From assembly GCA_964016885.1 (NCBI GenBank), contig OZ024742.1, positions 5,766,001-5,830,000 on the forward strand: a stretch of 64,000 nucleotides of DNA, given 5' to 3'. Below the pieces are notes generated by a model, which saw only the letters and a list, made by a program, of their open reading frames with translations, had not been told where the DNA came from and did not search any database. The translations under genes were made by a program, and so were the position numbers. Source of the stretch: Eledone cirrhosa. Its lineage: Eukaryota. Positions 5,502 to 36,614 of this stretch are shown piece after piece (within the stretch, counting starts at the first letter, position 1; each line of letters begins with the position of its first letter).

Positions 5502-6316
5502 TATATTTGTCTACATCACCATATGGGCATTGAGGGCTTTTTCTCTATCCTCATGCTCTTGTGGTGTTACTTCTCTTGTGTTAGTGGTGTGGGGTTGCAC
5601 TGCCTGGATGTAGTTTGGCAGACTGTCAACCGACATTCTGCCAGACATGTCTGTTGGAAAGCATGCTATCTCTCCATTACGCGAGCGCTGCATGAGCTTA
5701 CGCAAGCCATTTGCAGATTTTTCTCCCAGTTGCTGGCCCTCCATTCTATTATGCTTCTTGCTATACTGTTCTATAATATTTCTAAGTTTAGATCTAGCTA
5801 TACTAAATTGTGCTTCTGTTTGTTTATCGACCTGCGACGGCAATTGCGAGCGTTTGTTAAAAGCTAAAGTCGTGGCGTGGACTCGTCGCAGGTCGAACGA
5901 CTTATCGGAGGGATTATAAAAAGTAGAGTTCCAGGCTGCTGCAAAGCAACTGGTGCGTGTGTTTCTTATTGGCAACATGACCCTCCCAAAGTATAACAAT
6001 ATCGGTTTCAACACACGTTTTCAGATAAAGTATCTTGCTAAACAAATTCAGAAAGGATATATATCTATATATACATATATATATAGAATTCATTGATGTC
6101 TTGGAATAAGTTTATAGTTTCGCAATGGAGTCCATAAATAAATATATTGGCGTTTGTAAGGAAGGTAGAAGAAGGTTTGGTTTAGTTCCAGAGAAGGAGA
6201 ATATCAGAGTTGCTGCCAGGACTTTTACTGTTACTCCACAGCTCATTCCCACTCATCAGTTTTCCATGTTACTGGGAACGACCATTACTGGGAATTGTTG
6301 GACAACGTCCAGCTTG

Positions 6317-8340
6317 ATGGTGGTGGTGGTGATGGTGGTGATGGTGGTGGTGGTGATGGTGATGATGGTGTTGATGGTGGTGATGGTGGTGGTGGTGATG
6401 GTGATGATGGTGGTGGTGGTGATGGTGGTGGTGGTGATGGTCGTGATGGTGGTGGTGGTGATGGTGATGGTGATGATGGTGTTGATGGTGGTGGTGGTGT
6501 TGGTGATGATGGTGGTGGTGGTGATGGTGGTGGTGGTGATGGTCGTGATGGTGGCGGTGGTGGTGGTGATGGTGGTGATGGTGATGATGGTGTTGATGGT
6601 GGTGATGGTGGTGGTGGTGATGGTGATGGTGGTGATGGTGGTGATGGTGGTGGTGGTGATGGTGATGGTGTTGATGGTGGTGATGGTGGTGGTGGTGATG
6701 GTGATGATGGTGGTGGTGGTGATGGTGATGGTGATGATGGTGTTGATGGTGGTGGTGGTGTTGGTGATGATGGTGGTGGTGGTGATGGTGGTGGTGGTGA
6801 TGGTCGTGATGGTGGCGGTGGTGGTGGTGATGGTGGTGATGGTGATGATGGTGTTGATGGTGGTGGTGGTGATGGTGGTGATGGTGGTGGTGGTGGTGGT
6901 GGTGATGGTGATGGTGATGATGGTGGTGGTGGTGGTGGTGGTGGTGATGGTGGTGGTGGTGGAGGTGGTGGTGGTGGTGGTGGTGGTGGTTCTGGTGGTG
7001 GTGGTGGTGGTGGTTCTGGTGGTGGTGGTGGTGATGGTGGTGGTGGTGATGGTGGTGATGGTGGTGGTGGTGATGGTGATGGTGGTGATGGTGGTGGTGG
7101 TGCTGCTGCTGGTGGTAGTGGTGGTGGTGATAGTGGTGGTGGTGATGTGGTGGTGGTGGTGATGGTGGTGGTGGTGGTGGTGGCGGTGGTGATAGTGGTG
7201 GTGATGGTGGTGGTGATGGTGGTGGTGGTGGTGGTGGTGGTGGTGGTTGTGGTGGTGGCGGTGGTGATAGTGGTGGTGGTGATGTGGTGGTGGTGGTGAT
7301 GGTGGTGGTGGTGGTGATGGTGGTGATGGTGGTGGTGGTGCTGGTGGTGGTGGTGATAGTGGTGGTGGTGATATGGTGGTGGTGGTGATGGTGGTGGTAG
7401 TGATGGTGGTGGTGGTGGTGGTGGTGGCGGTGGTGATAGTGGTGGTGATGGTGGTGATGGTGGTGGTGATAGTGGTTGTGGTGATGGTGGTGGTGGTGAT
7501 GGTGGTGGTGGTGGTGATGGTGGTGGTGGTGGTGGTGGTTGTGGTGGTGGGGTCTTGGTGATGTGGTGGTGGTGGTGATGGCGGTGGTGGTGGTGATGTG
7601 GTGGTGGTGGTGCTGGTGGTGGTGATGTGGTGATGGTGGTAGTGGTGGTGATGGTAATGGTGGTAGTTGTGGTGGTGGTGATGGTGGTGGTGGTGATGGT
7701 GGTGGTTGTGATGTTGGTGGTGGTGTTGGTGATGGTGGTGGTTGTGTTGGTGGTGATGGTGGTGGTGGTGATGGTGGTGGTGGTGATAGTGGTTATGGTG
7801 ATGTGGTGGCGGTGGTAGTGATGGTGGTGATGGTGGTGGTAGTGGTGGTTGTGGTGGTGGTGGTTGTGGTGGTGGTGGTGGTGGTGGTGATGGTGGTGGT
7901 GGTGGTGGTAATAGTGGTGGTGGTGATGGTGCTGATGGTGGTGGTGGTAGTGGTGGTTGTGGTGGTGGTGGTTGTGGTGGTGGTGATGTGGTGGTGATGT
8001 GGTGGTGGTGGTGGTGATGGTGGTGGTGGTGCTGGTGGTGGTGATGTGCTGGTGGTGGTGGTGGTGGTAGTGGTGGTGATGATGATGGTAGTGGTGGTAG
8101 TGGTGGTAGTGGTGGTGATGGTGATGGTAGTGGTGGTAGCTGTGGTGGTGGTGATGGTGGTCGTGGTGATGGTGGTGGTGGTGATGGTGTGGTGGTGGTG
8201 GTGATGGTGGTGGTGGTGGTGGTGATGGTGGTGATGATGGTGGTGGTGGTAGTGGTGTTGGTGGTGTTGGTGGTGTTGGTGGTGGTGGTAGTGGTGGCGG
8301 TGGTCGTAGTGGAAGAGGTGGTGGTGATGGTGGTGATGAA
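6317..8340. repeat. Compound (GGT/GAT)n trinucleotide microsatellite, ~2 kb, followed by (GTT)n-rich tract to ~8490
   Basis: Direct reading; explains the long poly-V/G/T ORFs. Confidence 0.95.
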
Positions 8341-10041: not shown

Positions 10042-11913
10042 TAATAGAATATTGGTTAATAGAATATTGGTTAGTAGAATATTGGTTAGTAGAATGTTTG
10101 TTAATAGAATATTGGTTAGTAGAATATTGGTTAGTAGAATGTTTGTTAATAGAATATTGGTTAGTAGAATATTGGTTAGTAGAATATTGGTTAGTAGAAT
10201 ATTGGTTAGTAGAATATTGGTTAGTAGAATATTGGTTAGTAGAATATTGGTTAGTAGAATGTTTGTTAATAGAATATTGGTTAGTAGAATATTGGTTAGT
10301 AGAATATTGGTTAGTAGAATATTGGTTAGTAGAATATTGGTTAGTAGAATATTGGTTAGTAGAATATTGGTTAGTAGAATGTTAGTTAGAATATTAGTTA
10401 GTAGAATGTTTGTTAATAGAATATTGGTTAGTAGAATGTTTGTTAATAGAATATTGGTTAGTAGAATATTGGTTAGTAGAATGTTTGTTAATAGAATATT
10501 GGTTAGTAGAATATTGGTTAGTAGAATGTTTGTTAATAGAATATTGGTTAGTAGAATATTGGTTAGTAGAATGTTTGTTAATAGAATATTGGTTAGTAGA
10601 ATATTGGTTAGTAGAATGTTTGTTAATAGAATATTGGTTAGTAGAATATTGGTTAGTAGAATATTGGTTAGTAGAATATTGGTTAGTAGAATATTGGTTA
10701 GTAGAATATTGGTTAGTAGAATATTGGTTAGTAGAATGTTTGTTAATAGAATATTGGTTAGTAGAATATTGGTTAGTAGAATATTGGTTAGTAGAATATT
10801 GGTTAGTAGAATATTGGTTAGTAGAATATTGGTTAGTAGAATATTGGTTAGTAGAATGTTAGTTAGAATATTAGTTAGTAGAATGTTAGTTAGCAGAATG
10901 TTAGTTAGTAGAATATTGGTTAGTAGAATATTGGTTAGTAGAATATTGGTTAGTAGAATAATGGTTAGTAGAAAGTTAGTTAGAATATTAGTTAGTATAA
11001 TGTTATTTAGCAGAATGTTAGTTAGTAGAATATTGGTTAGTAGAATATTGGTTAGTAGAATATTGGTTAGTAAAATATTGGTTAGTAGAATATTGGTTAG
11101 TAGAATATTGGTTACTAGAATGTTAGTTAGAATATTAGTTAGTAGAATGTTAGTTAGCAGAATGTTAGTTAGTAGAATATTGGTTAGTAGAATATTGGTT
11201 AGTAGAATATTGGTTAGTAGAACGTTTGTTAATAGAATATTGGTTAGTAGAATATTGATTAGTAGAATATTGGTTAGTAGAATATTGGTTAGTAGAATAT
11301 TAGTTAGTAGAATATTGGTTAGTAGAATATTGGTTAGTAGAATATTAGTTAGTAGAATATTGGTTAGTAGAATATTGGTTAGTAGAATGTTAGTTAGAAT
11401 ATTAGTTAGTAGAATGTTAGTTAGCAGAATGTTTGTTAGTAGAATATTCGTTAGTAGAATATTGGTTAGTAGAACGTTTGTTAATAGAATATTGGTTAGT
11501 AGAATATTGGTTAGTAGAACGTTTGTTAATAGAATATTGGTTAGTAGAATATTGGTTAGTAGAATGTTTGTTAATAGAATATTGGTCAGTAGAATATTAG
11601 TTAGTAGAATATTAGTTAGTAGAATATTCGTTAGTAGAATATTGTTTAGTAGAATATTGGTTAGTAGAATGTTAGTTAGAATATTAGTTAGTAGAATGTT
11701 AGTTAGCAGAATGTTAGTTAGTAGAATATTGGTTAGTAGAATATTGGTGAATAGAATATTGGTTAGTAGAATGTTAGTTAGAATATTAGTTAGTAGAATG
11801 TTAGTTAGTAGAATGTTAGTTAATAGTATATTGGTTAGTAGAATATTGGTTAGTAGAATGTTAGTTAGAATATTAGTTAGTAGAATGTTATTTAGCAGAA
11901 TGTTAGTTAGTAG
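10042..11913. repeat. 15-bp minisatellite (AGAATATTGGTTAGT)n, ~125 units, with 12-bp and AGAATGTTTGTTAAT variants
   Basis: Direct reading; source of the NILLT/RILVS/EYWLV ORFs. Confidence 0.95.
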
Positions 11914-12255
11914 ATATTGGCCAGACCGAAATCTGTAAATAATATGTGAAATCATCTGGCCACATGTTACCAGACATCTGGACAATTAAATGCTGAGAAA
12001 CTCTTCTAGCAAACTGGCGACAATCTGAACTAAAGAAACTAGACTCCATTTTAGATAGTGACACCAACTTTGAACGTCTTATTAAGTCATTAAATAAGTT
12101 AATAATCAGATAAACAAATAGCAAACAAGTCAAGAAATGATATTACTTTTTCCTCTATTTTCTCTTGAAGCTGAAGAGGAGACATGTTGCCTATAATAAA
12201 GTTGTCGTCTGATGTCTAAGTCTGTATTATCCTAGAATAGCCTACAGGCTTGCTG
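11913..12255 (+). mobile_element. Heavily decayed Penelope-like GIY-YIG 3' end and pLTR remnant
   Basis: att ggc cag acc (IGQT) at 11916; HVTRHLD at 11963 in a shifted frame; SILDSDTNFERLIK at 12045; CTGAAGAGG hammerhead-like half core at 12171. Confidence 0.45.
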
Positions 12256-12766: not shown

Positions 12767-12973
12767 TCCTAACTATAAACCTAACCCTAAAATTAACCCT
12801 AACCCCAACCCTAACTCTAACCCTAACCGTAACCCTAATCCAAAACCTAACTCTAACTCTAAATCTAACTCTACCCCTAACCCTTACCCTAAATCTAAAT
12901 ATAACCCTAACCCCAACACTAACCCTAAATTTAATCCTAACCCTAAATTTAAACCTAACCCTGACATTAACCC
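12767..12973. repeat. Degenerate telomere-like (CCCTAA)n hexamer tract
   Basis: About 34 hexamers of aaccct/aactct/aaatct type. Confidence 0.8.
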
Positions 12974-14325: not shown

Positions 14326-14407
<82 letters not shown>

Positions 14408-14578
14408 CACCATACAGACACGCGTGTCTAGTATGTTTGTATATATTCTTGTATGGCATCATGTGACTATGTACCTAAGTTCATTTTTACCACTAGATAG
14501 ATAGTTAGAGAGAGAGAGGGAGAAACAAGATTCTTTCAATAGAATTTAGACAACAATTAGGTAAATACGCATTTACAC

Positions 14579-14641
14579 ATGTATGTGTGTGTATGTGTGT
14601 GTATGTGTGTATGTGTGTGTATGTGTGTATGTGTGTACGTA

Positions 14642-14672
<31 letters not shown>

Positions 14673-14718
14673 ACATGTGTGTGTGTGTATGTGTGTGTGT
14701 ATGTGCGTATGTGTATGT

Positions 14719-14815
<97 letters not shown>
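14579..14815. repeat. (TG)n microsatellite; (TA)n(GA)n also at 14327-14405
   Basis: Direct reading. Confidence 0.95.
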
Positions 14816-14816
<1 letters not shown>

Positions 14817-14899
14817 AGGTATGTATGTTATTGTATATGTGGATGTATGTTTCTCTATCTGTACATAGATACAGTTATTACATACTGAATTTACGAAAT

Positions 14900-15170
14900 A
14901 TTTTACATATTTTTACTGTTCCATTAATGGATGGTATTTGTAATTTCCTAACTAGTTGTGTTCTTTCTGGTTCTGTGAAGCCCAGCTTCTCAAGATTTGT
15001 ACTGAGGCAGTTACTAACATATCCCAGTATCCAATAATTACAGGTATAAATCTGAAGGTACAGCCAGGGTGGAGTGTATGTAGATTTTTCATCAGTTCTG
15101 CATAGTTATTCTCCTTTTCGCTAATTTTTAATATATTGGCATCTGCTGGGCAGGTAAATTCCACTACTGT
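14900..15170 (-). pseudogene. 3' remnant of an RLE-type (R4/Dong-like) non-LTR retrotransposon endonuclease
   Basis: Minus-strand translation TVVEFTCPADANILKISEKENNYAELMKNLHTLHPGCTFRFIPVIIG aligns with IVDVACPFDTRVQEKEREKINRYQDL...VVPIVVGALG of the element at 41391-41948. Confidence 0.8.
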
Positions 15171-18100
15171 GCTGGACAGCTAACTTCCACTACTGTGCTG
15201 GACAGCTAACTTCCACTACTGTGCTGGACAGGTAACTTCCACTACTGTGCTGGGCAGCTAACTTCCACTATTGTGCTGGACAGCTAACTTCCAGTACTGT
15301 GCTGGACAGGTAACTTCCACTACTGTGTTGGACAGCTAACTTCCACTGTTGTGCTGGACAGCTAACTTCCACTACTGTGCTGGACAGCTAACTTCCACTA
15401 CCGTGCTGGGCAGCTAACTTCCACTACTGTGCTAGGCATCTAACTTCCACTAATGTGTTGGACAGCTAACTTCCACTACTGTGTTGGACAGCTAACTTCC
15501 ACTACTGTGCTGGACAGCTAACTTCCACTACCGTACTGGGCAGCTAACTTCCACTACTGTGCTGGACAGCTAACTTCCACTACTGTGCTGGGCAGCTAAC
15601 TTCCACTACTGTGCTGGACAGGTAACTTCCACTACTGTGCTGGGCAGCTAACTTCCACTACTGTGCTGGACAGCTAACTTCCACTACTGTGTTGGACAGC
15701 TAACTTCCACTACTGTGTTGGACAGCTAACTTCCACTACTGTGCTGGACAGCTAAATTCCACTACTGTGTTGGACAGCTAACTTCCACTATTGTGCTGGA
15801 CAGCTAACTTCCACTACTGTGCTGGGCAGCTAACTTCCACTACTGTGCTGGACAGCTAACTTCCACTGCTGTGTTGGACAGCTAACTTACATTACTGTGG
15901 TGGACAGCTAACTTCCACTACTGTGCTGGACAGCTAACTTCCACTACTGTGTTGGACAGCTAACTTCCACTGTTGTGCTGGACAGCTAACTTCCACTACT
16001 GTGCTGGACAGCTAACTTCCACTGTTGTGCTGGACAGCTAACTTCCACTACTGTGTTGGACAGCTAACTTCCACTGCTGTGTTGGACAGCTAACTTCCAC
16101 TACTGTGTTAGACAGCTAGCTTCCACTGCTGTGTTGGACAGCTAACTTCCACTACTGTGTTGGACAGCTAACTTCCACTGTTGTGCTGGACAGCTAACTT
16201 CCACTACTGTGCTGGGCAGCTAACTTCCACTACTGTGTTGGACAGCTAACTTCCACTACTGTGTTGGACAGCTAACTTCCACTACTGTGTTGGACAGCTA
16301 ACTTCCACTACTGTGTTGGACAGCTAACTTACATTACTGTGGTGGACAGCTAACATCCACTACTGTGCTGGAAGCTAACTTCCACTACTGTGTTGGACAG
16401 GTAACTTCCACTACTGTGTTGGACAGCTAACTTCCACTACTGTGGTGGACAGCTAACTTCCACTACTGTGTTGGACAGCTAACTTCCACTACTGTGCTGG
16501 ACAGCTAACTTCCACTACTGTGCTGGACAGCTAACTTCCACTGTTGTGCTGGACAGCTAACTTCCACTACTGTGTTGGACAGCTAACTTCCACTACTGTG
16601 CTGGACAGCTAACTTCCACTACTGTGTTGGACAGCTAACTTCCACTGCTGTGTTGGACAGCTAACTTCCACTACTGTGTTGGACAGCTAACTTCCACTGT
16701 TGTGCTGGACAGCTAACTTCCACTACTGTGCTGGGCAGCAAACTTCCACTGTTGTGCTGGACAGCTAACTTCCACTACTGTGTTGGACAGCTAACTTCCA
16801 CTGTTGTGCTGGACAGCTAACTTCCACTACTGTATTAGACAGCTAACTTCCACTACTGTGCTGGACAGCTAACTTCCACTGTTGTGCTGGACAGCTAACT
16901 TCCACTACAGTGTTAGACAGCTAACTTCCACTACTGTGTTGGACAGCTAACTTCCACTGTTGTGCTGGACAGCTAACTTCCACTACTGTGTTGGACAGCT
17001 AACTTCCACTACTGTGTTGGAGAGCTAACTTCCACTAGTGTGTTGGACAGCTAACTTCCACTACTGTGCTGGGCAGCTAACTTCCACTGCTGTGTTGGAC
17101 AGCTAACTTCCACTACTGTGTTGGACAGCTAACTTCCACTACTGTGCTAGACAGCTAACTTCCACTACTGTGCTGGACAGCTAACTTCCACTACTGTGCT
17201 GGACAGCTAACTTCCACTGTTGTGCTGGACAGCTAACTTCCACTACTGTGTTGGACAGCTAACTTCCACTGCTGTGTTGGACAGCTAACTTCCACTACTG
17301 AGTTAGACAGCTAACTTCCACTACTGTGTTAGACAGCTAACTTCCACTACTGTGTTGGACAGCTAACTTCCACTACTGTGTTGGACAGCTAACTTCCACT
17401 ACTGTGCTGGGCAGCTAACTTCCACTACTGTGTTAGACAGCTAACTTCCACTGCTGTGTTGGACAGCTAACTTCCACTACTGTGTTGGACAGCTAACTTC
17501 CACTACTGTGTTAGACAGCTAACTTCCACTACTGTGTTGGACAGCTAACTTCCACTACTGTGTTGGACAGCTAACTCCCACTGCTGTGCTGGACAGCTAA
17601 CTTCCACTACTGTGTTAGACAGCTAACTTCCACTGCTGTGTTGGACAGCTAACTTCCACTACTGTGTTGGACAGCTAACTTCCACTACTGTGCTGGGCAG
17701 CTAACTTTCACTGCTGTGTTGGACAGCTAAGTTCCACTACTGTGTTGGACAGCTAACTTCCACTACTGTGTTGGACAGCTAACTTCCACTACTGTGCTGG
17801 ACAGCTAACTTCCACTACTGTGCTGGGCAGCTAACTTCCACTACTGTGCTGGGCAGCTAACTTCCACTGCTGTGTTGGACAGCTAAGTTCCACTACTGTG
17901 TTGGACAGCTAACTTCCACTACTGTGTTGGACAGCTAACTTCCACTACTGTGTTGGACAGCTAACTTACATTACTGTGGTGGACAGCTAACTTCCACTAC
18001 TGTGTTGGACAGCTAACTTCCACTACTGTGCTGGACAGCTAACTTCCACTACCGTGCTGGACAGCTAACTCCCACTATTGTGCTGGACAGCTAACTTCCA

Positions 18101-21100
18101 CTACTGTGTTGGACAGCTAACTTCCACTACTGTGCTGGACAGCTAACTTCTACTACTGTGTTAGACAGCTAACTTCCACTACTGTGCTGGACAGCTAACT
18201 TCCACTACTGTGTTAGACAGCTAACCTCCACTACTGTGTTGGACAGCTAACTTCCAGTACTGTGTTGGACAGCTAACTTCCACTACTGTGTTGGATAGCT
18301 AACTTCCACTACTGTGTTGGACAGCTAACTTCCACTGCTGTGTTGGACAGCTAACTTCCACTACAGTGTTGGACAGCTAACTTCCACTACTGTGTTGGAC
18401 AGCTAACTTCCACTACTGTGTTGGACAGCTAACTTCCACTATTGTGTTGGACAGCTAACTTCCACTACTGTGTTGGACAGCTAACTTCCACTACTGTGTT
18501 GGACAGCTAACTTCCACTACTGTGTTAGACAGCTAACTTCCACTACTGTGTTGGACAGCTAACTTCCACTACTGTGTTGGACAGCTAACTTCCACTGCTG
18601 TGTTGGACAGCTAACTTCCACTGTTGTGCTGGACAGCTAACTTCCACTACTGTGTTAGACAGCTAACTTCCACTACTGTGTTGGACAGCTAACTTCCACT
18701 ACTGTGTTGAACAGCTAACTTCCACTACTGTGTTGGACAGCTAACTTACATTACTGTGGTGGACAGCTAACTTCCACTACTGTGCTGGACAGCTAACTTC
18801 CACTACTGTGTTGGACAGGTAACTTCCACTACTGTGTTGGACAGCTAACTTCCACTACTGTGCTGGGCAGCTAACTTCCACTACTGTGTTGAACAGCTAA
18901 CTTCCACTACTGTGTTGGACAGCTAACTTACATTACTGTGGTGGACAGCTAACTTCCACTACTGTGCTGGACAGCTAACTTCCACTACTGTGTTGGACAG
19001 CTAACTTCCACTACTGTGCTGGACAGCTAACTTCCACTACTGTGTTAGACAGCTAACTTCCACTACTGTGTTGGACAGCTAACTTCCACTACTGTGTTGG
19101 ACAGCTAACTTCCACTGCTGTGTTGGACAGCTAACTTCCACTGTTGTGCTGGACAGCTAACTTCCACTACTGTGTTAGACAGCTAACTTCCACTACTGTG
19201 TTGGACAGCTAACTTCCACTACTGTGTTGAACAGCTAACTTCCACTACTGTGTTGGACAGCTAACTTACATTACTGTGGTGGACAGCTAACTTCCACTAC
19301 TGTGCTGGACAGCTAACTTCCACTACTGTGTTGGACAGGTAACTTCCACTACTGTGTTGGACAGCTAACTTCCACTACTGTGCTGGGCAGCTAACTTCCA
19401 CTACTGTGTTGAACAGCTAACTTCCACTACTGTGTTGGACAGCTAACTTACATTACTGTGGTGGACAGCTAACTTCCACTACTGTGCTGGACAGCTAACT
19501 TCCACTACTGTGTTGGACAGGTAACTTCCACTACAGTGTTGGACAGCTAACTTCCACTACTGTGCTGGACAGCTAACTTCCACTACTGTGCTGGACAGCT
19601 AACTTCCACTACTGTGCTGGACAGCTAACTTCCACTACTGTGCTGGGCAGCTAACTTCAACTGCTGTGTTGGACAGCTAACTTCCACTGCTGTGTTGGAC
19701 AGCTAACTTCCACTAATGTGCTGGACAGCTAACTTACATTACTGTGGTGGACAGCTAACTTCCACTACTGTGCTGGACAGCTAACTTCCACTACTGTGTT
19801 GGACAGCTAACTTCCACTACTGTGTTGGACAGCTAACTTCCACTACTGTGCTGGACAGCTAACTTCCACTACTGTGCTGGACAGCTAACTTCCACTACTG
19901 TGCTGGGCAGCTAACTTCAACTGCTGTGTTGGACAGCTAACTTCCACTACTGTGTTGGACAGCTAACTTCCACTACTGTGCTGGACAGCTAACTTCCACT
20001 ACTGTGCTGGACAGCTAACTTCCACTACTGTGCTGGACAGCTAACTTCCACTACTGTGTTGGACAGCTAACTTCCACTACTGTGCTGGACAGCTAACTTC
20101 CACTACTGTGCTGGACAGCTAACTTCCACTACTGTGTTGGACAGCTAACTTCCACTACTGTGTTGGACAGCTAATTTCCACTACTGTGCTGGGCATCTAA
20201 CTTCCACTACTGTGCTGGAGAGCTAACTTCCACTACTGTGCTGGACAGCTAACTTCCACTACTGTGCTGGACAGCTAACTTCCACTGCTGTGCTGGACAC
20301 CTAACTTCCACTACTGTGTTGGAGAGCTAACTTCCACTACTGTGCTGGACAGCTAACTTCCACTGATGTGCTGGACACCTAACTTCCACTACTGTGTTGG
20401 AGAGCTAACTTCCACTACTGTGCTGGACAGCTAACTTCCACTACTGTGCTGGGCAGCTAACCTCCACTACTGTGCTGGACAGCTAACTTCCACTGCTGTG
20501 TTGGACAGCTAACTTCCACTACTGTGCTGGACAGCTAACTTCCACTACTGTGTTGGGCAGCTAACTTCCACTACTGTGTTGGACAGCTAACTCCCACTGC
20601 TGTGCTGGACAGCTAACTTCCACTACTGTGTTGGACAGCTAACTTCCACTGCTGTGTTGGACAGCTAATTTCCACTACCGTGTTGGACAGCTAATTTCCA
20701 CTACTGTGCTGGACAGCTAAATTCCACTACTGTGCTGGGCAGCTAACTTCCACTACTGTGCTGGACAGCTAACTTCCACTACTGTGCTGGGCAGCTAACT
20801 TCCACTACTGTGTTGGACAGCTAACTCCCACTGCTGTGCTGGACAGCTAACTTCCACTACTGTGCTGGGCAGCTAACTTCCACTGCTGTGTTGGACAGCT
20901 AAGTTCCACTACCGTGTTGGACAGCTAACTTCCACTACTGTGTTGGACAGCTAACTTCCACTACTGTGCTGGACAGCTAACTTTCACTATTGTGCTGGAC
21001 AGCTAACTTCCACTACTGTGTTGGACAGCTAACTTCCACTACTGTGCTGGACAGCTAACTTCCACTGCTGTGTTGGACAGCTAACTTCCACTGCTGTGTT

Positions 21101-24100
21101 GGACAGCTAACTTCCACTACTGTGCTGGGCAGCTAACTTCCACTACTGTGTTGGACTGCTAAGTTCCACTACTGTGTTGGACAGCTAACTTCCACTATTG
21201 TGCTGGACAGCTAACTTCCACTACTGTGCTGGACAGCTAACTTTCACTGCTGTGTTGGACAGCTAACTTCCACTACTGTGTTAGACAGCTAACTTCCACT
21301 ACTGTGTTGGACAGCTAACTTCCACTACTGTGCTGGACAGCTAACCTCCACTACTGTGTTGGACAGCTAACTTCCACTACTGTGTTAGACAGCTAACTTC
21401 CACTACTGTGTTGGACAGCTAACTTCCACTATTGTGTTGGACAGCTAACTTCCACTACTGTGTTGGATAGCTAACTTCCACTACTGTGTTAGACAGCTAA
21501 CTTCCACTACTGTGCTGGACAGCTAACTTCCACTACTGTGCTGGACAGCTAACTTCCACTACTGTGCTGGACAGCTAACTTCCACTACTGTGCTGGACAG
21601 CTAACTTCCACTACTGTGTTGGACAGCTAACTTCCACTACTGTGTTAGACAGCTAACTTCCACTACTGTGCTGGACAGCTAACTTCCACTGCTGTGTTGG
21701 ACAGCTAACTTCCACTACTGTGTTAGACAGCTAACTTCCACTACTGTGCTGGACAGCTAACTTCCACTGCTGTGTTGGACAGCTAACTTCCACTACTGTG
21801 TTAGACAGCTAACTTCCACTGCTGTGTTGGACAGCTAACTTCCACTACTGTGTTAGACAGCTAACTTCCACTACTGTGTTGGACAGCTAACTTCCACTAC
21901 TGTGCTGGACAGCTAACTTCCACTACTGTGTTGGACAGCTAACTTCCACTACTGTGTTGGACAGCTAACTTACATTACTGTGGTGGACAGCTAACTTCCA
22001 CTACTGTGTTGGACAGCTAACTTCCACTACTGTGCTGGGCAGCTAACTTCAACTGCTGTGTTGGACAGCTAACTTCCACTATTGTGTTGGACAGCTAACT
22101 TCCACTACTGTGCTGGGCAGCTAACTTCCACTACTGTGCTGGACAGCTAACTTCCACTACTGTGCTGGAGAGCTAACTTCCACTACTGTGCTGGACAGCT
22201 AACTTCCACTACTGTGTTGGACAGCTAACTTCCACTACTGTGCTGGGCAGCTAACTTCAACTACTGTGCTGGAGAGCTAACTTCCACTACTGTGTTGGAC
22301 AGCTAACTTCCACTACTGTGTTGGACAGCTAACTTCCACTACTGTGCTGGGCAGCTAACTTCCACTACTGTGTTGGACAGCTAACTTCCACTACTGTGTT
22401 GGACAGCTAACTTCCACTACTGTGCTGGGCAGCTAACTTCCACTACTGTGCTGGGCAGCTAACTTCCACTACTGTGTTGGACAGCTAACTTCCACTACTG
22501 TGCTGGACAGCTAACTTCCACTACTGTGTTGGACAGCTAACTTCCACTACTGTGTTGGACAGCTAATTTCCACTACTGTGCTGGGCATCTAACTTCCACT
22601 ACTGTGCTGGAGAGCTAACTTCCACTACTGTGCTGGACAGCTAACTTCCACTACTGTGCTGGACAGCTAACTTCCACTACTGTGCTGGACAGCTAACTTC
22701 CACTAGTGTGTTGGACAGCTAAGTTCAACTACTGTGTTGGACAGCTAACTTGCACTGTTGTGCTGGACAGCTAACTTCCACTACTGTGCTGGACAGCTAA
22801 CTTCCACTGTTGTGCTGGACAGCTAACTTCCACTACTGTGTTGGACAGCTAACTTCCACTGTTGTGCTGGACAGCTAACTTCCACTACTGTGCTGGACAG
22901 CTAACTTCCACTGTTGTGCTGGACAGCTAACTTCCACTACTGTGTTGGACAGCTAACTTCCACTGCTGTGTTGGACAGCTAACTTCCACTACTGTGTTAG
23001 ACAGCTAACTTCCACTACTGTGTTAGACAGCTAACTTCCACTACTGTGTTGGACAGCTAACTTCAACTACTGTGTTGGACAGTTAACTTCCACTACTGTG
23101 CTGGGCAGCTAACTTCCACTACTGTGTTAGACAGCTAACTTCCACTGCTGTATTGGACAGCTAACTTCCACTACTGTGTTGGACAGCTAACTTCCACTAC
23201 TGTGTTAGACAGCTAACTTCCACTACTGTGTTGGACAGCTAACTTCCACTACTGTGTTGGACAGCTAACTCCCACTGCTGTGCTGGACAGCTAACTTCCA
23301 CTACTGTGTTAGACAGCTAACTTCCACTGCTGTGTTGGACAGCTAACTTCCACTACTGTGTTGGACAGCTAACTTCCACTACTGTGCTGGGCAGCTAACT
23401 TCCACTGCTGTGTTGGACAGCTAAGTTCCACTACTGTGTTGGACAGCTAACTTCCACTACTGTGTTGGACAGCTAACTTCCACTACTGTGCTGGACAGCT
23501 AACTTCCACTACTGTGCTTGGCAGCTAACTTCCACTACTGTGCTGGGCAGCTAACTTCCACTGCTGTGTTGGACAGCTAAGTTCCACTACTGTGTTGGAC
23601 AGCTAACTTCCACTACTGTGTTGGACAGCTAACTTCCACTACTGTGTTGGACAGCTAACTTACATTACTGTGGTGGACAGCTAACTTCCACTACTGTGTT
23701 GGACAGCTAACTTCCACTACTGTGCTGGACAGCTAACTTCCACTACCGTGCTGGACAGCTAACTCCCACTATTGTGCTGGACAGCTAACTTCCACTACTG
23801 TGTTGGACAGCTAACTTCCACTACTGTGCTGGACAGCTAACTTCTACTACTGTGTTAGACAGCTAACTTCCACTACTGTGCTGGACAGCTAACTTCCACT
23901 ACTGTGTTAGACAGCTAACTTCCACTACTGTGTTGGACAGCTAACTTCCAGTACTGTGTTGGACAGCTAACTTCCACTACTGTGTTGGACAGCTAACTTC
24001 CACTACTGTGTTGGACAGCTAACTTCCACTGCTGTGTTGGACAGCTAACTTCCACTATTGTGTTGGACAGCTAACTTCCACTACAGTGTTGGACAGCTAA

Positions 24101-27100
24101 CTTCCACTACTGTGTTGGACAGCTAACTTCCACTACTGTGTTGGACAGCTAACTTCCACTATTGTGTTGGACAGCTAACTTCCACTACTGTGTTGGACAG
24201 CTAACTTCCACTACTGTGTTGGACAGCTAACTTCCACTACTGTGTTAGACAGCTAACTTCCACTACTGTGTTGGACAGCTAACTTCCACTACTGTGTTGG
24301 ACAGCTAACTTCCACTGCTGTGTTGGACAGCTAACTTCCACTACTGTGTTGAACAGCTAACTTCCACTACTGTGTTGGACAGCTAACTTACATTACTGTG
24401 GTGGACAGCTAACTTCCACTACTGTGCTGGACAGCTAAGTTCCACTACTGTGTTGGACAGGTAACTTCCACTACTGTGTTGGACAGCTAACTTCCACTAC
24501 TGTGCTGGGCAGCTAACTTCAACTGCTGTGTTGGACAGCTAACTTCCACTACTGTGCTGGACAGCTAACTTCCACTACTGTGCTGGACAGCTAACTTCCA
24601 CTACTGTGCTGGACAGCTAACTTGCACTACTGTGCTGAGCAGCTAACTTCAACTGCTGTGTTGGACAGCTAACTTCCACTGCTGTGTTGGACAGCTAACT
24701 TCCACTACTGTGCTGGACAGCTAACTTACATTACTGTGGTGGACAGCTAACTTCCACTACTGTGCTGGACAGCTAACTTCCACTACTGTGTTGGACAGCT
24801 AACTTCCACTACTGTGTTGGACAGCTAACTTCCACTACTGTGCTGGACAGCTAACTTCCACTACTGTGCTGGACAGCTAACTTCCACTACTGTGCTGGGC
24901 AGCTAACTTCGACTGCTGTGTTGGACAGCTAACTTCCACTACTGTGTTGGACAGCTAACTTCCACTACTGTGCTGGACAGCTAACTTCCACTAATGTGCT
25001 GGACAGCTAACTTCCACTACTGTGCTGGACAGCTAACTTCCACTACTGTGTTGGACAGCTAACTTCCACTACTGTGCTGGACAGCTAACTTCCACTACTG
25101 TGCTGGACAGCTAACTTCCACTACTGTGTTGGACAGCTAACTTCCACTACTATGTTGGACAGCTAATTTCCACTACTGTGCTGGGCATCTAACTTCCACT
25201 ACTGTGCTGGAGAGCTAACTTCCACTATTGTGCTGGACAGCTAACTTCCACTACTGTGCTGGACAGCTAACCTCCACTACTGTGTTGGACAGCTAACTTC
25301 CACTGCTGTGTTGGACAGCTAACTTCCACTACTGTGCTGGACAGCTAACTTCCACTACTGTGCTGGGCAGCTAACTTCCACTACTGTGTTGGACAGCTAA
25401 CTCCCACTGCTGTGCTGGACAGCTAACTTCCACTACTGTGTTGGACAGCTAACTTCCACTGCTGTGTTGGACAGCTAATTTCCACTACCGTGTTGGACAG
25501 CTAATTTCCACTACTGTGCTGGACAGCTAACTTCCACTACTGTGCTGGGCAGCTAACTTCCACTACTGTGCTGGACAGCTAACTTCCACTACTGTGCTGG
25601 GCAGCTAACTTCCACTACTGTGTTGGACAGCTAACTCCCACTGCTGTGCTGGACAGCTAACTTCCACTACTGTGCTGGGCAGCTAACTTCCACTGCTGTG
25701 TTGGACAGCTAAGTTCCACTACCGTGTTGGACAGCTAACTTCCACTACTGTGTTGGACAGCTAACTTCCACTACTGTGCTGGACAGCTAACTTTCACTAT
25801 TGTGCTGGACAGCTAACTTCCACTACTGTGTTGGACAGCTAACTTCCACTACTGTGCTGGACAGCTAACTTCCACTGCTGTGTTGGACAGCTAACTTCCA
25901 CTGCTGTGTTGGACAGCTAACTTCCACTACTGTGCTGGGCAGCTAACTTCCACTACTGTGTTGGACTGCTAAGTTCCACTACTGTGTTGGACAGCTAACT
26001 TCCACTATTGTGCTGGACAGCTAACTTCCACTACTGTGCTGGACAGCTAACTTCCACTGCTGTGTTGGACAGCTAACTTCCACTACTGTGTTAGACAGCT
26101 AACTTCCACTACTGTGTTGGACAGCTAACTTCCACTACTGTGCTGGACAGCTAACTTCCACTACTGTATTGGACAGCTATCTTCCACTACTGTGTTGGAC
26201 AGCTAACTTCCACTACTGTGTTAGACAGCTAACTTCCACTACTGTGCTGGACAGCTAACTTCCACTGCTGTGTTGGACAGCTAACTTCCACTACTGTGCT
26301 GGACAGCTAACTTCTACTACTGTGTTAGACAGCTAACTTCCACTACTGTGCTGGACAGCTAACTTCCACTACTGTGTTAGACAGCTAACTTCCACTACTG
26401 TGTTGGACAGCTAACTTCCACTACTGTGTTGAACAGCTAACTTCCACTACTGTGTTGGACAGCTAACTTCCACTACTGTGTTGGACAGCTAACTTCCACT
26501 ACTGTGTTAGACAGCTAACTTCCACTACTGTGCTGGACAGCTAACTTCCACTACTGTGTTGGATAGCTAACTTCCACTACTGTGTTAGACAGCTAACTTC
26601 CACTACTGTGCTGGACAGTTAACTTCCACTGCTGTGTTGGACAGCTAACTTCCACTACTGTGTTAGACAGCTAACTTCCACTACTGTGCTGGACAGCTAA
26701 CTTCCACTGCTGTGTTGGACAGCTAACTTCCACTACTGTGTTAGACAGCTAACTTCCACTGCTGTGTTGGACAGCTAACTTCCACTACTGTGTTAGACAG
26801 CTAACTTCCACTACTGTGTTGGACAGCTAACTTCCACTACTGTGCTGGACAGCTAACTTCCACTACTGTGTTGGACAGCTAACTTCCACTACTGTGTTGG
26901 ACAGCTAACTTACATTACTGTGGTGGACAGCTAACTTCCACTACTGTGTTGGACAGCTAACTTCCACTACTGTGCTGGGCAGCTAACTTCAACTGCTGTG
27001 TTGGACAGCTAACTTCCACTATTGTGTTGGACAGCTAACTTCCACTACTGTGCTGGGCAGCTAACTTCCACTACTGTGCTGGACAGCTAACTTCCACTAC

Positions 27101-30100
27101 TGTGCTGGGCAGCTAACTTCCACTACTGTGCTGGGCAGCTAACTTCCACTACTGTGTTGGACAGCTAACTTCCACTACTGTGCTGGGCAGCTAACTTCAA
27201 CTACTGTGCTGGAGAGCTAACTTCCACTACTGTGTTGGACAGCTAACTTCCACTACTGTGTTGGACAGCTAACTTCCACTACTGTGCTGGGCAGCTAACT
27301 TCCACTACTGTGTTGGACAGCTAACTTCCACTACTGTGTTGGACAGCTAACTTCCACTACTGTGCTGGGCAGCTAACTTCCACTACTGTGCTGGGCAGAT
27401 AACTTCCACTACTGTGTTGGACAGCTAACTTCCACTACTGTGTTGGACAGCTAACTTCCACTACTGTGTTGGACAGCTAACTTCCACTACTGTGTTGGAC
27501 AGCTAACTTACATTACTGTGGTGGACAGCTAACTTCCACTACTGTGCTGGAAGCTAACTTCCACTACTGTGTTGGACAGGTAACTTCCACTACTGTGTTG
27601 GACAGCTAACTTCCACTACTGTGGTGGACAGCTAACTTCCACTACTGTGTTGGACAGCTAACTTCCACTACTGTGCTGGACAGCTAACTTCCACTACTGT
27701 GCTGGACAGCTAACTTCCACTACTGTGCTGGACAGCTAACTTCCACTACTGTGTTGGACAGCTAACTTCCACTACTGTGCTGGACAGCTAACTTCCACTA
27801 CTGTGTTGGACAGCTAACTTCCACTACTGTGTTGGACAGCTAATTTCCACTACTGTGCTGGGCATCTAACTTCCACTACTGTGCTGGAGAGCTAACTTCC
27901 ACTACTGTGCTGGACAGCTAACTTCCACTACTGTGATGGACAGCTAACTTCCACTGCTGTGCTGGACACCTAACTTCCACTACTGTGTTGGAGAGCTAAC
28001 TTCCACTACTGTGCTGGACAGCTAACTTCCACTACTGTGCTGGACAGCTAACTTCCACTACTGTGTTGGATAGCTAACTTCCACTACTGTGTTAGACAGC
28101 TAACTTCCACTACTGTGCTGGACAGCTAACTTCCACTGCTGTGTTGGACAGCTAACTTCCACTACTGTGTTAGGCAGCTAACTTCCACTACTGTGTTGGA
28201 CAGCTAACTTCCACTGCTGTGTTGGACAGCTAACTTCCACTACTGTGTTAGACAGCTAACTTCCACTGCTGTGTTGGACAGCTAACTTCCACTACTGTGT
28301 TAGACAGCTAACTTCCACTACTGTGTTGGACAGCTAACTTCCACTACTGTGCTGGACAGCTAACTTCCACTACTGTGTTGGACAGCTAACTTCCACTACT
28401 GTGTTGGACAGCTAACTTACATTACTGTGGTGGACAGCTAACTTCCACTACTGTGTTGGACAGCTAACTTCCACTACTGTGCTGGGCAGCTAACTTCAAC
28501 TGCTGTGTTGGACAGCTAACTTCCACTATTGTGTTGGACAGCTAACTTCCACTACTGTGCTGGACAGCTAACTTCCACTACTGTGCTGGACAGCTAACTT
28601 CCACTACTGTGCTGGGCAGCTAACTTCCACTACTGTGCTGGGCAGCTAACTTCCACTACTGTGTTGGACAGCTAACTTCCACTACTGTGCTGGGCAGCTA
28701 ACTTCAACTACTGTGCTGGAGAGCTAACTTCCACTACTGTGTTGGACAGCTAACTTCCACTACTGTGCTGGGCAGCTAACTTCCACTAATGTGCTGGGCA
28801 GCTAACTTCCACTACTGTGTTGGACAGCTAACTTCCACTACTGTGCTGGACAGCTAACTTCCACTACTGTGTTGGACAGCTAACTTCCACTACTGTGTTG
28901 GACAGCTAATTTCCACTACTGTGCTGGGCATCTAACTTCCACTACTGTGCTGGAGAGCTAACTTCCACTACTGTGCTGGACAGCCAACTTCCACTCCTGT
29001 GCTGGACAGCTAACTTCCACTGCTGTGCTGGACACCTAACTTCCACTACTGTGTTGGACAGCTAACTTCCACTATTGTGTTGGACAGCTAACTTCCACTA
29101 CTGTGCTGGGCAGCTAACTTCCACTACTGTGCTGGACAGCTAACTTCCACTACTGTGCTGGGCAGCTAACTTCCACTACTGTGCTGGGCAGCTAACTTCC
29201 ACTACTGTGTTGGACAGCTAACTTCCACTACTGTACTGGGCAGCTAACTTCAACTACTGTGCTGGAGAGCTAACTTCCACTACTGTGTTGGACAGCTAAC
29301 TTCCACTACTGTGTTGGACAGCTAACTTCCACTACTGTGCTGGGCAGCTAACTTCCACTACTGTGCTGGACAGCTAACTTCCACTACTGTGCTGGGCAGC
29401 TAACTTCCACTACTGTGCTGGGCAGCTAACTTCCACTACTGTGTTGGACAGCTAACTTCCACTACTGTGTTGGACAGCTAACTTCCACTACTGTGCTGGG
29501 CAGCTAACTTCCACTACTGTGTTGGACAGCTAACTTCCACTACTGCGTTGGACAGCTAACTTCCACTACTGTGCTGGGCAGCTAACTTCCACTACTGTGC
29601 TGGGCAGCTAACTTCCACTACTGTGTTGGACAGCTAACTTCCACTACTGTGTTGGACAGCTAACTTCCACTACTGTGTTGGACAGCTAACTTCCACTACT
29701 GTGTTGGACAGCTAACTTACATTACTGTGGTGGACAGCTAACTTCCACTACTGTGCTGGAAGCTAACTTCCACTACTGTGTTGGACAGGTAACTTCCACT
29801 ACTGTGTTGGACAGATAACTTCCACTACTGTGGTGGACAGCTAACTTCCACTACTGTGTTGGACAGCTAACTTCCACTACTGTGCTGGACAGCTAACTTC
29901 CACTACTGTGCTGGACAGCTAACTTCCACTACTGTGCTGGACAGCTAACTTCCACTACTGTGTTGGACAGCTAACTTCCACTACTGTGCTGGACAGCTAA
30001 CTTCCACTACTGTGTTGGACAGCTAACTTCCACTACTGTGTTGGACAGCTAATTTCCACTACTGTGCTGGGCATCTAACTTCCACTACTGTGCTGGAGAG

Positions 30101-32427
30101 CTAACTTCCACTACTGTGCTGGACAGCTAACTTCCACTACTGTGCTGGACAGCTAACTTCCACTGCTGTGCTGGACACCTAACTTCCACTACTGTGTTGG
30201 AGAGCTAACTTCCACTACTGTGCTGGACAGCTAACTTCCACTACTGTGCTGGACAGCTAACTTCCACTACTGTGCTGGACAGCTAACTTCCACTACTGTG
30301 CTGGACAGCTAACTTCCACTACTGTGTTGGAGAGCTAACTTCCACTGTTGTGCTGGACAGCTAACTTCCACTACTGTGCTGGGCAGCTAACTTCCACTGC
30401 TGTGCTGGACAGCTAACTTCCACTACTGTGCTGGACAGCTAACTTCCACTACTGTGCTGGACTCCTAACTTCCACTACTGTGTTGGAGAGCTAACTTCCA
30501 CTACTGTGTTGGAGAGCTAACTTCCACTACTGTGTTGGAGAGCTAACTTCCACTACTGTGTTGGAGAGCTAACTTCCACTACTGTGTTGGACAGCTAACT
30601 TCCACTACTGTGTTGGACAGCTAACTTCCACTACTGTGTTGGACAGCTAACTTCCACTACTGTGTTGGAGAGCTAACTTCCACTACTGTGCTGGACTCCT
30701 AACTTCCACTACTGTGTTGGAGAGCTAACTTCCACTGCTGTGTTGGACAGCTAACTTCCACTACTGTGTTGGACAGCTAACTTCCACTACTGTGTTGGAG
30801 AGCTAACTTCCACTACTGTGTTGGACAGCTAACTTCCACTACTGTGTTGGAGAGCTAACTTCCACTACTGTGCTGGACTCCTAACTTCCACTACTGTGTT
30901 GGAGAGCTAACTTCCACTGCTGTGTTGGACAGCTAACTTCCACTACTGTGTTGGACAGCTAACTTCCACTACTGTGTTGGAGAGCTAACTTCCACTACTG
31001 TGTTGGACAGCTAACTTCCACTACTGTGTTGGAGAGCTAACTTCCACTACTGTGCTGGACTCCTAACTTCCACTACTGTGTTGGAGAGCTAACTTCCACT
31101 ACTGTGCTGGACTCCTAACTTCCACTACTGTGTTGGACAGCTAACTTCCACTACTGTGCTGGACAGCTAACTTCCACTACTGTGCTGGACTCCTAACTTC
31201 CACTACTGTGTCGGAGAGCTAACTTCCACTACTGTGCTGGACAACTAACTTCCACTACTGTGCTGGACTCCTAACTTCCACTACTGTGTTGGAGAGCTAA
31301 CTTCCACTACTGTGCTGGACAGCTAACTTCCACTACTGTGCTGGACTCCTAACTTCCACTACTGTGTTGGAGAGCTAACTTCCACTACTGTGCTGGACAG
31401 CTAACTTCCACTACTGTGCTGGACTCCTAACTTCCACTACTGTGTTGGAGAGCTAACTTCCACTACTGTGCTGGACAGCTAACTTCCACTACTGTGCTGG
31501 ACTCCTAACTTCCACTACTGTGTTGGAGAACTAACTTCCACTACTGTGTTGGAGAACTAACTTCCACTACTGTGTTGGAGAACTAACTTCCACTACTGTG
31601 CTGGGCAGCTAACTTCCACTACTGTGCTGGAGAACTAACTTCCACTACTGTGCTGGACAGCTAACTTCCACTACTGTGCTGGACAGCTAACTTCCACTAC
31701 TGTGCTGGACTCCTAACTTCCACTACTGTGTTGGAGAACTAACTTCCACTACTGTGTTGGAGAACTAACTTCCACTACTGTGCTGGACAGCTAACTTCCA
31801 CTACTGTGCTGGACAGCTAACTTCCACTACTGTGCTGGACAGCTAACTTCCACTACTGTGCTGGACTCCTAACTTCCACTACTGTGTTGGAGAACTAACT
31901 TCCACTACTGTGTTGGAGAACTAACTTCCACTACTGTGCTGGACAGCTAACTTCCACTACTGTGCTGGACAGCTAACTTCCACTACTGTGCTGGACAGCT
32001 AACTTCCACTACTGTGCTGGACAGCTAACTTCCACTGCTGTGTTGGACAGCTAACTTCCACTACTGTGCTGGACAGCTAACTTCCACTACTGTGTTAGAC
32101 AGCTAACTTCCACTACTGTGCTGGACAGCTAACTTCCACTACTGTGCTGGACAGCTAACTTCCACTACTGTGCTGGACAGCTAACTTCCACTACTGTGCT
32201 GGACAGCTAACTTCCACTACTGTGCTGGACTCCTAACTTCCACTACTGTGTTGGAGAACTAACTTCCACTACTGTGCTGGACAGCTAACTTCCACTACTG
32301 TGCTGGACAGCTAACTTCCACTACTGTGCTGGACTCCTAACTTCCACTACTGTGCTGGAGAACTAACTTCCACTACTGTGCTGGACAGCTAACTTCCACT
32401 ACTGTGCTGGACAGCTAACTTCCACTA
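15144..32427. repeat. 26-bp tandem satellite (TGCTGGACAGCTAACTTCCACTACTG)n, ~660 units, 17.3 kb
   Basis: Direct reading; C/T and other single-base variants; multi-kb internal duplications. Confidence 0.98.
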
Positions 32428-32469
32428 TGAGGATCTTTGAGTGGAGCATTCTACATCTACTCTTTATAT

Positions 32470-32990
32470 TAGGGTAGAGTTGGATGGTAGGGTGGTAGGT
32501 TGTGTAGGTAGGGTGGTAGGGTAGGGTGGTAGAGTAGTATGGTAAGGTAGGGTGGGATGGTAGTGTTGGAGTTTAGAGTGGGAGAGTAGGGTGGGAGAGT
32601 ATGGTGGTAGGCTAGGGTGGTAGGGTAGGGTGGGAGGTTAACTTGGGAGGGTAGGGTGGGATGGTAGGGTGGTAGGGTGGCATGGTAGGGTGGTAGGGTG
32701 GCATGGTAGGGTAGGGTGGGAGGTTAGATTGGTAGAGTAGGGTGGTAAGTTAGGGTGGGTTGGTAGGGTAGTGTGGGAGGGTAGGGTAGGGTAGTACGGG
32801 AGGGTAGGGTGGTGGAGCAGGGTCGTATGGTAGGGTGGTAGGATGGTAGAGTAGTGTGGGAGGTTAGGGTGGTAGTGTAGGGTGGTAGGGTAGGGTGGTA
32901 GGGTGGTAGGGTAGGGTGGTAGGGTGATAAAGTAAAGTGGGAGGGTAGGATAGGAGGGTGCAAGGGGAGGTTGGAAGTGTAGGTTAAAGG
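32470..32990 (+). repeat. G-rich low-complexity tract (GGTAG/GGGT motifs)
   Basis: Dense GGG runs, e.g. ggtagggtggtagggtagggt, with occasional TTAGGG. Confidence 0.85.
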
Positions 32991-35240: not shown

Positions 35241-35363
35241 TTGTGTGTTTGTAAGTGCGTGTGTGTGAGGCTCTCTGACTTGATGGTTAGGATACTCTCC
35301 CGATATACGAGAGTGCGTTTTCGACATCCCTGCTTCCTTTTCCCATCTCCAGTGTTACAGTCC

Positions 35364-35421
<58 letters not shown>

Positions 35422-35424
<3 letters not shown>

Positions 35425-36614
35425 GGAAGAGGCGGGCTCCTTTGGTGAGAAGATCCATCTGCTGCCAACACCCTTCTAACGGAGGGCTGGGGATGCCGTG
35501 GTTGACGATGCGCAAACACGCGCTCAGGCTGCGGCATCTCTACGTATTCCTCACCGGACAACCGGTGTGGGCCCCGTTCGTGAGGCGAGCCTTCCCACGA
35601 CTCGTCTCGCTGACCGAGCTGCAGTCCTGGGTCAAGCAGAGACCGAGGAAAATGGGCGACTGGCACATCGAATGTGCTCAGGCGCTCACAGCCCTCTGGC
35701 AGGCGGACCCGGCGATCAGTGGAGACTCCACTTCGTCATTCTATAGAGGGTTGGTCCGCAGCAAGTGCGACGACGCGCTCGGTGAAACTCTAGGCGTGGA
35801 GGAAGATGAACTGGCCAGTCTGTTCGGTAGGACCTTCCGCCCGGGACCGATGGACAACTTCCAAAAGTCCCTGGCCTGGCAGTGCTACCGAGGAGCTCTA
35901 CCAGTTCGAGACAAGCTCTACAGACATGGGCGCCCGGGCAGGGACCCTGCAAAAAAGATCTGTCCGAGGTGCGTGCGAGACGAAGAAACCGTCGCGCACG
36001 CATTCATACACTGCCCGGGCGTCACTGACCTGTGGGGCTATGTGGAACGACTATTGTCGCGGGTGGGACCAATCCAGTTGACCACCGAGTCCATTGTCAT
36101 GATCAAACCGCCACCCTCCTTCAAAAACGAAGGAGAGGCGGTTTTCCTTTGTGTGATAGCTATGGCGAAAGAGGTTGTATGGTGGACAAGGTTGAAAGGG
36201 CTGAGGTCAGACACCTTTCTCTCCGGCCAACAACTGATTCTTTTTTTCAAATACCACTTTGGAAGAAGAATCAGGATGGAGAGAGAGGTGCTGTACCCCA
36301 GCAAGTTTTATGAAAGGTGGGTGAAAGTGGCGAGAATGGCCCGAGTGAATGGGCCTTCTCTCTATATCAGCCTGTAGGTTGAGGAAAAGGAGGAGGAGAG
36401 GAAAGGAGTACAAGCTCTTCGTACTCCTGGAGATGAGGGTTGCACATTTTTTTCGGGGGTCTGTGTTACCCATATAAACTGTCTCCCTCTATTGGGGAAA
36501 ATCGACTAACTTTTAAATTCCATCTGTGATAACATTTTACACGTTTTTATTGTATGTAAACTTCCCCCTTTGTATTTGTCCCCTTCTTTTGTGCCCCTGT
36601 GGCTAATAAAGAAA
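35422..36614 (+). mobile_element. 5'-truncated Tx1-like LINE (ORF2 C-terminus with zf-RVT + 3' UTR), flanked by (TCTA)n
   Basis: Open frame to the stop at 36377: WKRRAPLVRRSICCQHPSNGGLGMP, CPRC...ETVAHAFIHC; 3' end aataaagaaa; (TCTA)n at 35364-35421 and 36615-36637. Confidence 0.92.

Follow-up and report, generated by a model that had tools for sequence, protein, structure and literature searches.

A 26-bp minisatellite of 665 units within a split copy of a restriction-like-endonuclease LINE in Eledone cirrhosa

Contig OZ024742.1 of the Eledone cirrhosa assembly GCA_964016885.1 contains, within the 64,000-nucleotide stretch from 5,766,001 to 5,830,000 that was analysed here (the window, to which positions refer unless stated otherwise), a tandem array of a 26-bp unit taken from the C-terminal coding region of a long interspersed nuclear element (LINE) with a restriction-like endonuclease (RLE). 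We read the array as a single-locus minisatellite lying within the LINE copy that it has split, started by a chance duplication after insertion of that copy, lengthened by unequal exchange and likely without function, and assign this reading a probability of about 0.8. Of its components, origin in place from this LINE copy is nearly certain, absence of a selected function (argued from context) is very probable, and a duplication after rather than during LINE insertion is probable.

The array and the LINE copy around it

Tandem Repeats Finder (TRF) places the array at 15147-32427, with 664.8 copies and 92% matches. Decomposition in the register of the LINE gives 665 units on the minus strand (15144..32427), running from 32427 down to 15144, of which 662 are 26 bp and 3 are 25 bp long; all have the same orientation, kb-scale block duplications are nested among them, and the first unit (at 32427) is partial, without its first three bases. 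The count bears out the ~660-fold amplification proposed in an earlier interpretation made without database searches (the sequence-only reading). The array includes 81 distinct unit variants, with a mean divergence of 4.7% from the array consensus, which itself differs from the majority 26-mer of the parent LINE at 2 of 26 positions (20 and 24). The longest stop-free run is 51 amino acids on the plus strand and 39 on the minus strand, and the array is non-coding, as had been proposed.

Copies of the parent LINE were obtained by a genome search with 14940-15175 as the query (3.0-Gb assembly), which returned 2743 candidates; 40 were scored and 30 taken, one being the window itself. In all 29 other copies the 26-mer is present once, in frame and directly 5' of a GATGCC-type continuation. 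This agrees with the proposed derivation of the unit from the RLE coding region, and the contrary case considered in the sequence-only reading, a parent lacking the unit at this place, is not what the copies show. Compared with the majority 26-mer, 12 copies are identical, 13 have one change, 3 have two and 1 has three, and most read ...HNRPDIMIWDREKKACTVVE(V/I)SCPADAN..KISEKENIYAEL... across this region.

The terminal unit of the array (15144..15169, minus strand), defined by translation and comparison with parent copies, reads TVVEFTCPA in frame with the open reading frame (ORF) remnant of the LINE. It has two private changes, retains the parent bases at both sites of consensus difference (20 and 24), and is likely the original LINE sequence. 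On the minus strand it continues unbroken into DANILKISEKENNYAEL...FIPVIIG, and a frameshift follows; the continuity with the RLE C-terminus noted previously is thus real, while the terminal unit carries FTCPA and not VSCPA.

Parent LINE sequence is present on both sides of the array, in the right order and on the right strand, and the array is therefore bracketed by one 5'-truncated LINE copy of ~0.65 kb, in line with the earlier view that the unit was amplified in place with its parent element attached. That an unrelated satellite lies beside a LINE, or was invaded by one, and matches it by chance is refuted by the native in-frame place of the unit between parent sequence on both sides, and 39 of 662 units are moreover identical to the parent majority 26-mer; we give this explanation practically no weight. 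The span previously given, 14950..32427, has the correct array end, but the LINE remnant extends leftwards to ~14410 and rightwards to 32471.

On the 3' side, all on the minus strand, translation and alignment identify the C-terminal end of the LINE ORF (14878..15143, comprising the RLE helix with its conserved lysine and continuing to the stop). This is followed by the proximal 3' untranslated region (UTR) (14816..14877, by blastn to parent copies), a (CA)n microsatellite expansion (14580..14815, by TRF, with parent 3' UTR aligning on both sides) and the decayed distal 3' UTR and tail (14410..14579, by local alignment to parent 3' ends). The host copy thereby contains two separate repeat expansions, and the parent copy L025 has a similar expansion at the site of the (CA)n. 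The left LINE end is approximate (14401-14438, depending on the parent copy compared), and the distal alignment scores above all 100 shuffles in 27 of 29 copies. From 15170 leftwards, blastn aligns each of the 29 parent copies over 277-451 columns, with identities of 80-89%. Of 301 columns of the remnant, 26 (8.6%) depart from the majority base of the other copies, and the remnant is frameshifted near 15030 and dead; the 56-residue ORF remnant of the window gave no Pfam family.

On the 5' side, the 53 bases to the right of the array were aligned to the 1.5 kb upstream of the unit in each parent copy. In 25 of 29 copies, the best match lies upstream of the anchor at a distance of ~130-85 bases, with a score reached by 0 of 100 shuffles in 22 copies and by 1 of 100 in 3; the four copies without a match are truncated or deleted there. 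Local alignment assigns 32428..32471 (minus strand) to parent offsets of about -129 to -86, with 30 of 37 columns identical to the copy L013. Between this 5' piece and the partial first unit, ~64 bp of the parent, including the PD codons, are absent, and TA is common to both sides of the deletion join (by eye). The LINE 5' junction is followed by a degenerate CCTA/CCAC-rich repeat (32470..32946, no strand assigned, G-rich strand; by TRF), which has no parent match among the matches listed and is possibly a decayed microsatellite target ((CATA)n).

The array is confined to one locus in this assembly, a single assembly that may be incomplete. For a 24-base pattern spanning the join of two units, the genome has 386 exact matches, all in the window and on one strand, and a looser 17-mer has 452 of its 455 matches there (19 matches for a reversed control). 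The unit is therefore not found genome-wide with unrelated flanks, the other contrary case that had been considered. The outside 17-mer match at C1:142.32 Mb was rejected as an independent duplication, being an ordinary single LINE copy with point changes.

Contigs of four public runs (X1, X4, X5 and X6, from organisms A, B, C and D, respectively) were compared with 14900-15225, which includes three units. The tandem-only bins 15175-15225 are covered by contigs of three of the four (X1, X4 and X6), where X1 may be the assembly's own sample; X6 contributes three listed pieces of 53-56 bases, one without mismatch. In X5 the parent unit is deeply covered and the tandem bins are at depth 0-3. Contig depth is not copy number, and summed contig depth was set aside as an unreliable measure of it. 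In contigs of two public runs (23 and 26 records), loose ends at 15172 carry the upstream part of the parent. These comparisons suggest that the tandem is not confined to the assembly analysed, that it occurs under at least two organism labels and that one relative almost lacks it. As its presence seems to differ among organism labels, the steps of its formation could be ordered by comparison of orthologous loci.

The same contigs bear on whether assembly error produced all or most of the array. Its length does rest on one assembly, with no contig or read spanning it. The tandem sequence in contigs of X1, X4 and X6, the 81 unit variants and the diverged block duplications described below speak against an artefact, and duplication by the assembler is unlikely because the longest exact repeat in the array is only 522 bp; we regard this explanation as highly improbable.

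The parent LINE and its endonuclease domain

The longest listed parent copy, L084, is 5'-truncated and encodes a 965-residue stretch with a reverse transcriptase (RT; PF00078, E 3.1e-24), a CCHC motif and a C-terminal domain. A protein search scored 126 copies, of which the 125 besides the query's own have 89-92% amino-acid identity and many have long open frames, and the family appears from these sequences to be abundant and recently expanded. The 3' end runs into (CATA)n in 20 of the 23 copies in which it is recognisable (none was recognised in 6 of 29), and this (CATA)n may be a retrotranscribed tail rather than a target.

The parent is likely a member of the R4/Dong clade, an assignment that we base partly on presumed clade motifs. 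Its named protein homologues include entries from Octopus bimaculoides and Argonauta, and neither the homologue searches nor the cluster look-up of the parent protein returned an element named R4 or Dong. R4/Dong elements combine RT and RLE and target ribosomal DNA (rDNA) or microsatellites (PMC7998251). The clade is also marked by an N-terminal SANT/Myb-like domain without zinc fingers, which would lie at the end where L084 is truncated. The parent resembles them in having RT and RLE, no APE (apurinic endonuclease) domain seen and a microsatellite at its 3' end, but this end is (CATA)n, as opposed to the (TAA)n of Dong in most insects, molluscs and cnidarians (PMC7998251). Dong-R4 families are reported to be recently active in Octopus vulgaris (PMC13282606).

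In all 29 parent copies the unit is preceded by HNRPD and followed by a K-bearing helix. An AlphaFold model of the C-terminal 316 residues of the parent has a predicted local distance difference test score (pLDDT) of 81.7. All five Foldseek matches of this model at E<=0.001 are R2 retrotransposon structures, and in the VIA comparison seven R2 chains give Z 11.6-13.5 (root-mean-square deviation 5.7-6.0, 202-210 aligned), with the next entry at Z 9.1. Searches of the PDB by sequence alone, whether with a single parent protein or a 43-sequence profile, returned no R2 or other relevant match. The model thus indicates a PD-(D/E)xK restriction-like endonuclease fold of R2-like type. The R2 RLE domain (PDB 9DOU, 9NL2, 9NL3 and 8GH6) shares with the parent the C-terminal fold and one order of CCHC, RH, PD, second acidic residue and K; the two differ in sequence (12-16% identity), and the parent is dispersed in thousands of copies and not rDNA-specific.

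In the model, PD is at 220-221, just before the strand 222-226, and the VVE of the unit is within the strand 231-238. The second acidic residue of RLE domains is located on β-strand 3 (PMC4838377), and the VVE glutamate, which lies on this strand of the model, is accordingly the predicted second acidic catalytic residue. Its placement, together with the R2 fold match, upholds the earlier proposal that the unit contains this residue. Any importance of the catalytic position of the slice is unsupported: the array is non-coding and the LINE copy was already dead or died later, so that nothing beyond chance is needed to explain the position, and the coverage of the catalytic residue is probably a coincidence.

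Repeat expansions are also seen in the 3' UTR of other parent copies, namely (CA)n in L025, (CT)n in L004, an 11-bp duplication in L012 and (CA)n where L016 breaks off, and this family may quite generally give rise to micro- and minisatellites. L025 (C1:441,244,968-441,248,204) has in addition a stop-free frame of at least 592 residues, in which the APE-to-RT-start part of another LINE, which we take to be RTE-like, is fused in frame to the RLE tail; here a truncated copy of the RLE LINE family seems to have landed in frame within another LINE.

Origin, growth and possible function

The proposed history comprises four steps. In the first, a 5'-truncated RT-CCHC-RLE LINE copy (~0.65 kb) would have inserted at a target that was likely a (CATA)n microsatellite; the copy itself displays the truncation and decay, and the target is deduced from other copies. 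In the second, a 26-bp segment bounded by GCA...GCA would have been duplicated, likely by slipped-strand or microhomology-mediated repair, where the boundaries are observed and the mechanism is a weakly supported proposal. In the third, the array would have lengthened as blocks of 0.6-1.5 kb were duplicated time and again, at distances of 0.5-11 kb from one another; the blocks are observed, and unequal exchange or gene conversion is their suggested cause. The fourth step, the ~64-bp deletion, took away the PD motif together with the first bases of the first unit; the deletion is observed, and its place in this order is provisional.

Evidence for the third step comes from nine pairs of blocks, each of 22-56 units (0.6-1.5 kb) and separated by lags of 20-430 units. 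The paired blocks are 1.5-2.4% diverged, random units of the array having 7.6% divergence from one another. The block search was seeded at no more than 8 differences per 20-unit window, and 20 shuffles never gave fewer than 15. A fixed higher-order repeat was considered and rejected (unit-identity autocorrelation of 0.09-0.17 against an expected 0.116, at lags 1-69). We infer that the block pattern was left by repeated unequal exchange or gene conversion; change of minisatellites by recombination is cited in PMC3389668.

Alternatively, the first duplication and the 64-bp deletion were both made at insertion, through RT slippage or template jumping near the 5' truncation, with recombination acting only later. 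Both rearrangements do lie close to the copy's 5' junction (~130 bp away at most), the shared TA at the deletion join is consistent with such an event, and it was suggested that tandem repetition of transposable elements (TEs) can start during retrotransposition (PMC3389668). Yet none of the 29 other copies has a duplication of the segment, the genome searches yielded no second dimer junction, and a later deletion explains the partial first unit equally well. An origin at insertion is therefore unlikely in our view, and a duplication after insertion is preferred.

Several points weigh against a chance duplication after insertion followed by growth at this single locus, or against the evidence for it. 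The 5' piece of the host copy is short (37-45 bp), with ~80% identity compared with ~91% for the 3' piece. The 29 parent copies are the best of the 2743 candidates to a query that included the terminal unit and are not a random sample, and of the three 17-mer matches outside the window one was examined. GCA is present at both unit ends, as a match of 3 bp in 21 of 29 parent copies and of 4 bp in 1, in keeping with the earlier suggestion that GCA microhomology bounds the slice; when positions and distances are drawn at random in a parent copy, however, 6.3% of the pairs have at least three matching bases, so that this microhomology is only suggestive. At 3 bp it also falls short of the flanking direct repeats of 5-10 bp in the Haber-Louis model (cited in PMC3389668). 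Finally, the initiating event is not directly readable because the original 5' boundary has been deleted.

As to function, the array might have been retained as an antisense-transcribed source of PIWI-interacting or small interfering RNAs that silence the parent family. It would then turn active-site codons of the parasite against it, as a dedicated silencing locus and a 665-fold antisense template of the most conserved endonuclease stretch of the LINE. The abundance and recent expansion of the parent family, the reported recent activity of Dong-R4 in Octopus vulgaris (PMC13282606) and the good conservation of the targeted 26 bp (25 of 29 copies within one change) are compatible with such a role. 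Perfect matches to any of the 29 parent copies are few, however, with 724 of 17232 array 26-mers (4.2%) and 2859 of 17237 array 21-mers (16.6%), so that any silencing effect would probably be small, and the array consensus has drifted from the parent. A search of sequencing runs listed no RNA run with this sequence and had all shares below 0.2, a result that says nothing for or against expression. Moreover, all units point one way, without an inverted arrangement, and the thousands of dispersed copies (2743 candidates) already supply the whole element. We consider a small-RNA source very improbable, and favour an array without a selected function.

Comparable repeats and the neighbourhood

The array belongs to the known and common class of TE-derived minisatellites: its 10-100-bp class unit is repeated head-to-tail, the unit matches a dispersed TE, and the array lies within a copy of that TE. 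A multi-locus satellite family is not indicated, since the junction matches are in the window only (386 of 386, in an assembly that may be incomplete), and the 5-10 bp flanking direct repeats of the Haber-Louis model are replaced here by 3 bp. In human, TEs are the source of 7276 of 31472 minisatellites (23%), and 300 of these TE-derived minisatellites are flanked by direct repeats (Ahmed & Liang 2012, PMC3389668). These, and the Alu-derived minisatellites of Jurka & Gentles cited there, resemble the array in consisting of a short non-LTR slice repeated head-to-tail in place, at a single locus between parent flanks, with a short direct repeat at the boundary and an incomplete terminal unit. 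The array differs from them in its length (665 units, compared with two in most of the unexplained cases of PMC3389668), in its donor, an RLE-type LINE ORF, and in its direct repeat of only 3 bp.

Satellites from LINE ORFs tabulated in PMC9659126 include PROsat (L1 ORF2, Phodopus), chicken HinfI/CR1 and seal Pvc20. The array is like them in having a monomer derived from a LINE ORF. The donors in the part of Table 1 used here are APE-type (L1, CR1), with no RLE-type donor, whereas the donor of the array is RLE-type; the array, furthermore, has not spread and its birth site is preserved. Neither this array nor any satellite derived from an RLE-type element was found described in the open-access literature as far as it was searched, and the main text of PMC13282606 has no occurrence of 'satellite'. 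The array is thus probably new as a documented case of an already described class, and probably neutral. Since TE-derived minisatellites are common and described (PMC3389668, PMC9659126), its general significance is modest, and it gives no pointer to a new mechanism or function. How a minisatellite was born can seldom be retraced with ease, as the source sequence has usually disappeared; in the present case the donor, the flanks, the ancestral terminal unit and the block duplications are all readable, and the array could serve well in teaching or as a model of how a satellite arises from a LINE ORF.

The region around the array consists throughout of TE remnants and tandem repeats. A 49-bp array starts 23 kb away (window 55834-64000 and beyond, contig 5,821,834 to at least 5,981,419) and extends over ~160 kb; the 150 listed of its 467 matches are all within that interval, and its flank has no match elsewhere among the matches listed. 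Given this array and the other repeats nearby, the 17-kb array is not exceptional here. A 15-bp array at 10045-11920 has 127 copies, a strong G/C skew and 12-bp deletion variants. Derivation of the 49-bp or the 15-bp array from the parent LINE was considered and has no support among the matches listed. A degenerate (CCTAAC)n repeat at 12768-12973 is a telomere-like interstitial repeat, and an Rfam search of 9000-36000 gave 0 matches.

Further to the left, a 524-residue ORF at 3936-5510 (minus strand) has a weak RT match (E 0.0014) and is, we presume, possibly Penelope-like; just beyond it is a 2-kb (TGG)n-type array of 677 triplets (6318-8335). To the right of the 26-bp array, a second and different RLE-type LINE remnant (41391-42674, minus strand) encodes RT and a seemingly intact RPD...IVD...K motif. 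The LINE sequences at 35241-36377, 44916-48505 and 50978-54405 are three decayed APE-RT copies that belong to one related kind, which we take to be L1/Tx1-like.

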